The position numbers and the translations under genes were made by a program. A stretch of DNA of 64,000 bases from Candidatus Daviesbacteria bacterium (lineage in GTDB: Bacteria > Patescibacteriota > Microgenomatia > Daviesbacterales > UBA10151). Position 1 is the first letter of the stretch; each line of letters starts with the position of its first letter. Shown piece by piece: positions 5,496 to 6,902 of the stretch. The notes under the pieces are model-generated. The model was not told the DNA's origin, searched no databases, and worked only from the letters and a program-made list of their open reading frames with translations. The stretch is from assembly GCA_016186955.1 (NCBI GenBank), contig JACPKP010000007.1, forward strand, positions 1,962-65,961, given 5' to 3'.

Positions 5496-6902
5496 ATGTC
5501 CAACTTCAAAGTTATTGCCAAAGATGGGGGAGCGCGGGCTGGGGTTTTGAAGACTACCCATGGGGAGATCCGGACCCCTGTTTTTATGCCTGTTGGAACG
5601 CAGGGAAGTGTGAAAGCGCTTTCCCCTGATGATTTAAAAAATGCCAAATCCCAAATTATTTTAGGGAATACCTACCATTTATATTTGAGGCCCGGCAACA
5701 AATTGATTAAAAAAATGGGGGGGCTGCATAAATTTATGGGGTGGGATGGGCCGATTTTAACAGACAGCGGGGGATTCCAGGCATTTTCCCTGGGCGCTGC
5801 AATAGAGCATGGGGTTAAAAAAGTTCAAAAGTTAAAAGTCAAAAGTCAAAATTACAATTCGCTCGCAAATACTATGGGTGGTGATATGGTTAGTAATAGT
5901 TACCAAAAAAAACCCGAAAAGCGTGAAAAATTGCGTGAAAACAGCAAAGGGGAGAGGGAAGCTCTAAATAAGAGTCAAGAGTCAAGAGTCAAGAGTCCAG
6001 AGAAGACAAAACATACTTTCAGTAAAATTACAGATGATGGGATAGTTTTTAGGTCTCACCTGGATGGTTCTTCACACTTGTTGACCCCGCAAAAATCAAT
6101 TGAGATCCAGTTGGATTTAGGATCGGATATAATTCTTACTTTGGATGAACTCCTCTCCCCTCTTCATAACAAAACATATGTAAAAAAATCACTGGAAAGG
6201 ACGCACAGGTGGGAGATAGAAAGCCAAAAATATTTTAAAAAGTACTCAAAAAAATTATTAACCCCCTCCCCTATTTTATTTGGGATTTTACAGGGGGTTT
6301 ATGATAAAAAAATTAGGGAAGATGAAGCGAAATGGATTGCAGAGCAGGGGTTTGACGGGATTTCAATAGGCGGATCATTCGGGACCTCAGAAATTTGGGG
6401 GCATGATAGTGTCAACTGGGCTTCAGGGAAAGCGATCAATGACACTTTTGAGTGGGTGACTCCCCTGCTGCCAGAAGACTTACCAAGGCATGGGTTGGGG
6501 ATTGGGGAGGTGGCAAATTTATTCGGTTCAATAGAGTGGGGTATAGATATGTTTGATTGTGTCTCCCCCACCAGGCGGGCAAGAAACGGCTCGTTGTATG
6601 TTTCACCAAAATCTCGTATTTACTCTAATACACGAGAGTATCAAAGTAAGAAATTTACAATAAATATTAATCAGCAAAGATTTTCTAGAGATAAGAAATC
6701 AATAGACCCAACTTGTGAGTGTTACACTTGCCAAAACTTTTCCAGGGCATATTTAAGGCACCTGTTTGTTTCTTCCGAAATCCTCTACCACCGCCTGGCT
6801 TCAATTCACAACGTTTATTTTATAAATAATTTAGTGGAAAAAATTAGGGAGGCAATTTTAGATAAGCAATTTAAAAAACTAAAAGATAAATGGTTAGGAT
6901 AA
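5496..6902 (+). CDS. tgt: queuine tRNA-ribosyltransferase with ~90-aa low-complexity insertion
   Basis: N-terminal [34 protein letters not shown], and C-terminal Zn motif CxCxxC...H. The insertion is encoded partly by GTCAAAA/GTCAAGA 7-mer repeats. Confidence 0.85.

Follow-up and report, generated by a model that had tools for sequence, protein, structure and literature searches.

The DNA analysed here, hereafter the window, is a stretch of 64,000 nucleotides from a genome of Candidatus Daviesbacteria (assembly GCA_016186955.1, contig JACPKP010000007.1, positions 1,962 to 65,961 of the forward strand), and our coverage of that genome corresponds to this 64-kb window. The open reading frame (ORF) at positions 5496–6902 was identified as tgt (Pfam TGT, E = 1e-123). 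It carries two tandem arrays of a heptanucleotide, and related heptamers recur in ribosomal protein genes, in map and in an intergenic spacer, at some of these sites around a 21-nt GC-rich hairpin. Tandem 7-mers in tgt had been reported in a first-pass annotation of the window, and both direct reading of the sequence and Tandem Repeats Finder (TRF) confirmed their presence. The strings cited there were found, although their ends had to be shifted by 1 to 2 nt: GTTAAAAGTCAAAAGTCAAAA occupies 5831–5851 rather than 5831–5853, and the 32-mer of the second array occupies 5971–6002 rather than 5971–6003.

The two tgt arrays bracket a lineage-specific insertion. On alignment with Z. mobilis TGT (2nqz), residues 3–102 of the window protein matched chain residues 14–113 and residues 175–462 matched chain residues 113–372, with residues 103–174 lacking a counterpart. 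An insertion of about 90 amino acids had been proposed; the insertion itself stands, but its size relative to this solved canonical enzyme is 72 amino acids. Each array is located approximately 15 nt inward from its end of the insert. AlphaFold2 assigned a predicted local distance difference test (pLDDT) score of approximately 30 to residues 94–172 and scores of 85–95 to parts of the TIM-barrel core, and the insert is predicted to be disordered. A compensated frameshift across the 118 nt that separate the arrays was ruled out, given that frames 2 and 3 of this interval hold stop codons. A second lineage-specific segment relative to the Z. mobilis enzyme, 13 residues in length, is present at 6606–6656 (residues ~371–387) inside a low-confidence stretch at residues 356–395.

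Heptamers of the same type are scattered through the window. With one mismatch or fewer allowed, GTCAARAGTCAARA matched the window 14 times, always on the plus strand, compared with an expectation of 0.23, and none of 100 shuffled sequences reached 14 matches. AAAAGTC/AAGAGTC units were located at six or more unrelated loci in the 64 kb (tgt, rplD, rplW, rplV, map and one spacer), all on the coding strand. The arrays are arranged head to tail (TRF period 7, 3.3–4.9 copies, 87–100% matches), and no tandem-repeat period is as frequent in the window as 7 (20.3 arrays per 100 kb), with 14 (7.8) and 9 (6.2) next. The sites outside tgt that had been annotated previously, in rplD, in rplV and in the rplB–rpsS spacer, were all recovered, and we identified additional copies in rplD, rplW and map (composite copies 1 to 3 in Table 1). 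The Pfam L23 domain of rplW stops at residue 89 of 169 and the Pfam L22 domain of rplV at residue 103 of 158, which places the arrays of these two genes in COOH-terminal extensions. A scan of the whole window with Rfam at gathering thresholds yielded only a tRNA-Pro gene, in agreement with ARAGORN, and the repeats therefore do not correspond to a known RNA family.

Table 1 Positions of heptamer arrays, 21-nt hairpins and associated features in the window
Feature	Position	Strand	Remarks
Lineage-specific 72-aa Tgt insert, residues 103–174	5802–6017	+	Bracketed by both heptamer arrays
tgt heptamer array 1, (AAAAGTY) x4.6, 11 residues encoded	5819–5851	+	TRF score 50, 88% matches
tgt heptamer array 2, (AAGAGTC) x4.7, 11 residues encoded	5970–6002	+	TRF score 59, 96% matches
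Composite copy 1, (GTCAAAA)2 + GCCCGTCTGCCGGACGGGCAG + (GTCAAAA)2, rplD NH2-terminal extension	36325–36373	+	Hairpin 36339–36359, read PSAGRAG
Heptamer array (AGAGTCM) x3.3 in L4 domain of rplD, read RVQSQESS	36959–36981	+	TRF
Composite copy 2, one GTCAAAA + GCCCGCCTGCCGGACGGGCAG + ~six decayed heptamers, rplW 80-aa COOH-terminal extension	37600–37677	+	Hairpin 37607–37627
Degenerate AGAGTCY array from rplB stop codon, rplB–rpsS spacer	38556–38585	+	Repeat family D6; a different, nested GC palindrome follows at 38586–38630
Heptamer array (AAAAGTC/AAATGTC) x4.9 and decayed units, rplV COOH-terminal extension	39262–39316	+	TRF scores 54–62
Composite copy 3, (GTCAAAA)2 + GCCCGTTTGCCGAACGGGCAG + (GTCAAAA)2, inside map	47634–47682	+	Hairpin 47648–47668
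21-nt hairpin variant ACCTGTCTGCCGACAGGCAAG in AT-rich heptamer leader upstream of rpsE	44465–44485	+	Fold z –4.0
21-nt hairpin variant ACCTGTCTGCCGACAGGCAAG upstream of rpsD	49418–49438	+	Leader alignment
Four ~120-nt leaders	42589–42694, 42889–43007, 44382–44510, 49334–49461		Two of four carry the 21-nt hairpin

The composites listed in Table 1 follow a 49-nt layout, (GTCAAAA)2-GCCCGYYTGCCGRACGGGCAG-(GTCAAAA)2, with the 21-nt GC hairpin placed between the second and third of four heptamer units. As the first-pass annotation had remarked, the 7-mers flank the GC palindrome; GTCAAAA adjoins it in all three composite copies. These copies (36325–36373, the partly decayed 37600–37641, and 47634–47682) are 80–89% identical across 65 nt and form repeat family D5. 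Copy 1 was predicted to fold with an energy of –14.7 kcal/mol (z –3.6). It appears less likely to be merely intergenic than to belong to rplD, given that the ATG at 36311 is preceded by AGGAGG and that the next in-frame start codon has no such Shine-Dalgarno site. The composite in map gives rise to a 17-amino acid insert, SQKSKARLPNGQVKSQN, that follows AWSVVVG and has the Pfam M24 domain on either side; compared with copy 1, its stem shows a compensatory change from C-G to T-A.

Together with the two copies upstream of rpsE and rpsD, the window contains five 21-nt hairpins, with fold z scores of –2.7 to –4.0 (–2.7 to –3.6 for the three composite copies), and three of the five as well as most of the arrays are inside ORFs. 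The two intergenic copies belong to AT-rich repeats of approximately 120 nt, themselves composed of heptamers such as AATTTAC and ATTAAAA, that immediately precede the start codons of rpsN, rpsH, rpsE and rpsD. When these four paralogous repeats were aligned, copies with and without the hairpin differed by exactly 21 nt. Given that none of the four genes has a Shine-Dalgarno sequence, the ~120-nt repeats may be leaders or internal promoters.

Both units are well suited to residence in coding sequence. Low-complexity translation of the heptamers had been noted before, and tracts of the VKSQKSK and SQESRVKS types are indeed encoded. Because 7 is not a multiple of 3, the same hydrophilic seven-residue pattern results in all three sense frames, with (GTCAAAA)n reading VKSQKSK and (GTCAAGA)n reading VKSQESR. 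The arrays are free of stop codons in the three sense frames and contain TGA in every antisense frame, which accounts for their strict sense orientation inside genes. The 21-nt hairpin is open in all six frames and corresponds to exactly seven codons; it is read as ARLPNGQ in map and as P(S/P)AGRAG in rplD and rplW, that is, in two different frames.

Alignment of 22 Daviesbacteria-like Tgt orthologues revealed the site of the insertion to be hypervariable in length. Orthologues at 54–66% identity, several of them from named Daviesbacteria, range from 404 to 601 amino acids, and the length difference in this region is confined to the same loop. Several of the orthologous inserts bear the signature of heptamer translation, and P0003 (locus L075) has (AGAAGTC)x3.9 at the place where the window Tgt has its first array. 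Hairpin-type peptides such as DSGQARMT are found in further loops of other Tgt orthologues. Among 120 MetAP orthologues, the loop after AWSVxVG holds from 0 to approximately 40 amino acids of unrelated sequence, and most of these proteins are without the 17-residue insert of the window. This loop contains (AAATCCG)2, a GC hairpin and (AAATCCG)3.4 in L073, and GAAGTC, a GC hairpin and (AGAAGTC)2 in L074. Heptamers around a GC hairpin are therefore a recurrent arrangement at one permissive site, the units differing by lineage. At the equivalent Tgt and MetAP loops, other Daviesbacteria show heptamers or hairpins unlike those of the window, or no such element.

A single metagenome scan with the pattern (GTCAAAA)2-N0-30-(GTCAAAA)2 returned at least 120 contigs, and arrays of four or more GTCAAAA units were found in more than 110 contigs, in unrelated genes. 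Among the matches listed, 57 arrays lay within long ORFs, all of them in sense and none in antisense orientation, and those outside ORFs shared the orientation of the neighbouring genes in 42 cases and opposed it in 43. The in-ORF hosts among these matches were housekeeping proteins, including AlaRS, LigA, PheT, ThyA, LepA, RecG, QueA, IscS, GluRS, GatB, LeuRS, RpoB and similar proteins. In the same set, copy number ranged from 4 to 37 with a mode of 4 (61 of 112 pure arrays), which is also the minimum that the pattern allows. In-ORF runs of the listed matches measured 28–37 nt (41 of 46 at 30–34 nt), and noncoding arrays showed a long tail of up to 37 copies. Pure arrays far outnumbered composites among these matches. 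Two contigs, L128 and L101, have exactly 2+2 GTCAAAA units around different hairpins of 21 and 24 nt, respectively. The specific 21-nt unit of the window was absent from the approximately 840 kb of (GTCAAAA)-bearing contigs searched, and it is therefore not an obligate partner of the heptamer. The CPR (candidate phyla radiation)-like proteins with (GTCAAAA)4 of L091 (PheT), L120 (QueA) and L124 (5'-3' exonuclease) also contain other heptamer-derived (RIKNYELRIKN) and hairpin-derived (PTPNPTPMKGGE, IPASRQGGQ) tracts, indicating that several cassette types coexist in a single gene.

The arrays showed no sign of instability in the comparisons available. An independent Logan assembly (L001) is 100% identical to the window over 9.7 kb including both tgt arrays, and a Logan contig of a 98%-identical strain from another run (L002) has an identical AAGAGTC array in tgt. 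No change in copy number was apparent in these two comparisons or in three pairs of near-identical metagenome contigs (99.7–100%), which together constitute a small sample, and no length variants were found within protein clusters at 90% identity. The comparison of copy number among strains that the first-pass annotation had called for thus revealed no polymorphism, with too few near-identical pairs at hand. In L002, a YebC/TACO1 gene is joined to tgt exactly at the AAGAGTC array (L002 860–1090, window 5966–6100); this join is most likely a k-mer chimera, in which case the YebC gene would contain the same array as well. The L002 strain additionally has a 15-nt tandem duplication beside a hairpin at the 3' end of tgt (L002 ~1870, window ~6897).

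The distribution of the 21-nt hairpin extends well beyond Daviesbacteria. In one genome scan of GTDB species representatives, we obtained 70 exact matches to AAAGCCCGNNTGCCGNACGGGCAGG (L003–L072), none of which is flanked by heptamers. Most are from Bacteroidota, among them isolates of Aureibaculum, Mesonia and Zunongwangia as well as a Niabella metagenome-assembled genome (MAG) whose approximately 20 copies form part of a larger repeat; others are from Levy-, Davies-, Giovannoni-, Nomura- and Saccharibacteria, Chlorobiota, Dehalococcoidia, Scalindua and gammaproteobacterial MAGs. In many cases, the copy lies within the loop of a second hairpin. Twenty-five copies are located in long ORFs, 21 of them in the frame K-ARLPDGQ-G and none antisense, and the ORFs concerned in other phyla encode PheS, GyrB, a DnaG-like protein and others. 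In PheS of Levybacteria, comparison with solved PheS structures revealed a clean seven-residue insert in the zinc knuckle. At the same codon position, the PheS unit is identical at 24–25 of 25 nt between Levybacteria and gammaproteobacterial MAGs, compared with 49–54% identity in the flanks. Prophage contigs of one Bacillota MAG (IMG/VR, L197–L215) likewise contain the 21-mer on its own, in at least 11 copies, in frame in a tape-measure protein (four copies, in both orientations) and in a capsid-like protein, and some of the prophage copies are nested into compound palindromes with the CCTGTCTGCCGACAGG variant, nesting being present in L199 and L214. The groups with the hairpin comprise Patescibacteria, Bacteroidota, Bacillota (prophages), Chlorobiota, Chloroflexota, Planctomycetota and Gammaproteobacteria, and its nucleotide identity is near-perfect even though the flanking orthologous codons have diverged to approximately 50%.

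The presence of the same 21-mer across phyla, including at an identical codon position of PheS, points to either an unrecognised copying mechanism or a function at the nucleotide level. Neither the insertion in PheS nor the intergenic one of 21 nt shows a visible target-site duplication, and the flanks of the heptamer arrays are themselves repeats. A search of full-text literature found no description of the hairpin sequence or of the peptides ARLPDGQ and PPAGRAG, and nothing relevant on palindromic or in-frame repeats in CPR bacteria. As a tentative proposal, the 21-nt hairpin GCCCGCCTGCCGGACGGGCAG, and, if the argument is extended, the ~30-nt heptamer blocks as well, could represent an undescribed ultra-small mobile element of seven codons, smaller than any miniature inverted-repeat transposable element (MITE), that a templated process copies in frame, with essential genes, hairpin loops and phage genes as its destinations, and that moves between phyla.

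With regard to the 7-mer tracts themselves, we lean toward the view that they form a dispersed family of micro-repeats that are harmless to the reading frame and that arrive as pre-formed blocks, rather than being local microsatellites. The basic unit would be a heptamer block of approximately 30 nt built from AAAAGTC or its sister AAGAGTC, with other Daviesbacteria using A-rich units such as AGAAGTC or AAATCCG. The 21-nt GC hairpin would be a second, separable unit, an independent cassette able to land in the middle of an array. Both would reach new sites as pre-formed blocks, with templated or recombinational insertion or a trans-acting enzyme as candidates for the copying step. Most insertions would be purged, and the survivors would be those in sense orientation, in frame and in permissive places such as the disordered loops of Tgt and MetAP, the tails of ribosomal proteins and spacers, where they would simply be translated as Lys/Ser/Gln-rich filler. 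Slippage would probably alter copy number only in arrays that are free of any reading-frame constraint. Unit-by-unit growth within an essential ORF is unlikely because each 7-nt step shifts the frame, and given that the same unit is present in many essential genes at approximately 30–34 nt and is apparently stable, block insertion followed by selection appears to be the most economical account. The blocks in essential genes look like a tiny, dispersed family of selfish DNA that is tolerated only in floppy loops and tails; their status may be selfish or neutral, with purifying selection presumably acting as the filter. That the heptamers might instead be 7-bp target-site duplications was ruled out, given that the same 7-mer is present at all loci of the genome.

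Several points weigh against this interpretation. Block insertion of the heptamers is argued from the frameshift consideration and from their distribution rather than from a directly observed event. No insertion enzyme, target-site duplication or terminal inverted repeat was found in the window or at the insertion sites, and Pfam scans of 20 ORFs of the window detected no transposase, reverse transcriptase or REP-associated tyrosine transposase (RAYT) gene. The metagenome scan demanded at least four copies, which clips the low end of the length distribution, and its contigs were pooled irrespective of taxonomy. The exact lengths of in-ORF runs are distributed evenly among the three classes modulo 3; chance matches to the flanks blur these lengths, and the boundaries of the cassettes are thus not definable. 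Finally, the repeats may benefit the host, for example by providing basic tails of ribosomal proteins or antisense termination.

The first-pass annotation had offered two origins for the solo arrays, as terminal repeats left behind by the palindrome or as slippage-prone microsatellites. In the first case, the arrays would be remnants of the 49-nt composite from which the hairpin was lost by slippage between direct repeats, leaving a solo array of four units. A hairpin between direct repeats is a classic substrate for deletion, the three composites of the window are 80–89% identical as whole units, and the four well-defined composites (those of rplD and map in the window, L128 and L101) all have exactly 2+2 units, such that removal of 21 nt yields exactly (GTCAAAA)4, the copy number most often found in pure arrays (61 of 112 among the matches listed). 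The mode of 4 and the 2+2 layout of L128 and L101 are, however, partly forced by a search pattern that called for at least 2+2 units. Moreover, three different hairpins occupy the same arrays, the 21-nt hairpin is found alone, as a clean 21-nt difference, in spacers of the window and in other phyla, pure arrays greatly outnumber composites, and AAGAGTC arrays were never seen with the 21-nt hairpin between them. Given that the hairpin is self-contained without heptamers, that (GTCAAAA)4 also accommodates other hairpins and that pure arrays are commoner, it seems more apt to regard the arrays as host or target of the hairpin than as its ends. The physical linkage between heptamer and palindrome thus holds, and solo arrays as left-behind ends, although possible, are not the origin we favour and appear unlikely.

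An origin of the arrays as microsatellites born in place, by slippage in A-rich, Lys-rich coding sequence and possibly as contingency (phase-variable) loci, seems to us slightly less likely again. The repeats are perfectly head to tail according to TRF, decayed units flank some of them, and noncoding arrays of 13–37 copies indicate that expansion by slippage does happen. The unit is nevertheless not specific to a locus, with the same 7-mer recurring across many unrelated genes and genomes, and each 7-nt step would throw essential genes, among them tgt, map, rpoB and those for tRNA synthetases, out of frame. In-ORF array lengths are also tightly bounded (~30–34 nt). No length difference was detected in the three near-identical pairs, in L001 or in L002. 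At contingency loci, which include the 7-bp repeats in the hmw promoters of Haemophilus, the copy number of short units can shift the frame or the spacing of a promoter. Such loci belong to genes for surface or virulence functions and vary greatly from one close strain to the next, whereas the genes here are essential housekeeping genes and no variation was seen. The second proposal of the first-pass annotation was therefore not sustained.

We also considered whether the elements are functional nucleic acid signals, with the antisense GC hairpin followed by UUUUGACUUUUGAC acting as a one-way intrinsic terminator against antisense transcription in the ribosomal protein operon. In a consensus scan of 14.5 kb, all five hairpins of the window ranked as the top terminator-like sites on the minus strand (36339–36357, 37607–37625, 47648–47666, 44465–44482 and 49418–49435), followed there by TTTTGAC/TTTCAAT tracts, and no minus-strand gene lies upstream of the five sites. 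The sense side has only A-tracts, the two intergenic copies share this polarity without coding constraint, and the compensatory stem change and the fold z scores of –2.7 to –4.0 are also in keeping with such a role. These two intergenic copies are paralogues, however, and count as a single observation. Arrays outside ORFs have no orientation bias among the matches listed (42 versus 43), the heptamers that flank hairpins in other lineages (AAATCCG, AGAAGTC) give no U-tract, arrays without a hairpin, such as those in tgt, cannot terminate transcription, and in-ORF orientation is already explained by stop codons. A terminator function thus appears improbable.

Selection for the encoded peptides, as Lys/Ser-rich flexible linkers or basic tails that bind rRNA or tRNA in the reduced translation apparatus of CPR bacteria, is considerably less plausible. 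The tracts are basic, and proteins of RNA binding and translation (L4, L23, L22, Tgt and tRNA synthetases) are over-represented among their hosts, but orthologues have unrelated sequence or nothing at the same sites, the same DNA units are also present in spacers, the hairpin is read in frames that differ by locus, and nucleotide identity between loci is far beyond what selection for a loose composition would need. An artefact of assembly or sequencing can be practically discounted: although the switch of L002 from YebC to tgt exactly at the AAGAGTC array demonstrates that the repeats can mislead assemblers, L001 matches the window at 100% over 9.7 kb that take in both tgt arrays, the 98%-identical strain from another run has the same array, and many independent assemblies, drawn from several studies, have their arrays in frame.

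Rickettsia palindromic elements (RPEs) are dispersed, inserted in frame in unrelated housekeeping ORFs, give rise to a peptide compatible with the fold of the host protein and are regarded as selfish (PMC10969869, PMC1779305). The elements described here resemble RPEs in that a palindromic repeat is in frame in unrelated ORFs (map, rplD, rplW, PheS, GyrB, DnaG-like and prophage tape-measure). RPEs are ~100–150 bp in length, are restricted to one genus and have one conserved peptide per family, whereas the units here are of 21 nt and ~30 nt (49 nt for the composite), are read in several frames, include tandem heptamers and a hairpin shared across phyla, and had no match in Rfam. The short tandemly repeated repetitive (STRR) sequences of cyanobacteria are heptanucleotides in tandem that are dispersed at many loci, mainly noncoding, and have no established function. 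A heptanucleotide unit that is both tandem and dispersed is also the case here. STRR sequences have been used for fingerprinting (PMC5088731). Their units, CCCCAGT and others, are those of heterocystous cyanobacteria, in contrast to AAAAGTC/AAGAGTC in Candidatus Daviesbacteria, and in-frame residence in essential genes and an embedded hairpin are not described features of STRR sequences.

The GC clusters of yeast and fungal mitochondria are short GC palindromes in an AT-rich genome that are sporadic in occurrence, horizontally exchanged and merged or nested (PMC4478555). The nesting of the 21-nt unit in L199 and L214 is reminiscent of these clusters. GC clusters are organellar, measure ~30–45 nt and have putative target-site duplications, whereas the unit here is found in bacteria and prophages, measures 21 nt, has no detectable target-site duplication and has the same sequence across phyla. 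Repetitive extragenic palindromic (REP) sequences, including bacterial interspersed mosaic elements (BIMEs) and mobilised by RAYT transposases, and MITEs are likewise short, multicopy, structured and nonautonomous, and the five 21-nt hairpins of the window fall within the 20–40 nt of the imperfect palindromes of REPs. REPs are extragenic, species-specific and RAYT-linked, however, whereas three of the five hairpins and most arrays here are inside ORFs; MITEs are at least ~50 bp in length, with terminal inverted repeats and target-site duplications, whereas the flanks of the composite are direct repeats and only its central 21 nt are palindromic. Palindromic (A)n/(T)n microsatellites in Fusarium mitochondria are optional between species, which has been taken as evidence of mobility (PMC7218506). 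They share with the present elements the combination of microsatellite and palindrome but are mononucleotide, intergenic and organellar. In behaviour, RPEs, yeast mitochondrial GC clusters and also STRR sequences are thus nearest, but given that sizes, sequences and hosts differ, the elements described here are members of none of these groups.

Other repeats were also noted in the window. Further GC-rich palindromic islands are located at 38586–38630, 39370–39418, 36390–36425 and 26240–26300, with nested CATTGCGAGGA...GACGAAGCAATC, CCTTCGACTCGCTACGCTCGCTCAGGATGAC and GTCGCCCCGAGTAACTCGGGGATCCAGAATGAC; the peptide equivalents of these islands (VIASEA.., DPSTS..QDDF and VIPES..) also occupy loops of MetAP and Tgt in other Daviesbacteria. 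A direct repeat of 69 nt without mismatches (23651–23719 and 24453–24521) brackets an ORF at 23739–24449 that encodes 236 amino acids without a Pfam match, and may reflect a recent duplication or insertion; a 36-nt motif related to this repeat is found at 22363, 23711 and 24418. A 57-nt repeat with 93% identity and the palindrome CCACAATTGTGTAAYCAATTGTGG inside is present in two spacers of the ribosomal protein cluster, at 41670–41726 and 43414–43470. On both sides of tgt are HicA/HicB toxin-antitoxin pairs (4953–5495 and 8590–9170; L001 gene calls).

If the interpretation that we favour is correct, CPR genomes would not only be reduced: micro-cassettes would continually write disordered segments into their most conserved proteins. 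Phylogenomic alignments based on ribosomal proteins and tRNA synthetases would be affected, as would gene calling, given that stop-free repeats lengthen ORFs, and assembly, given that contigs can break or misjoin at arrays, as in L002. The elements would then provide a clean natural case of selfish DNA that is harmless to translation, with heptamers that are invariant to frame and a hairpin of exactly seven codons.

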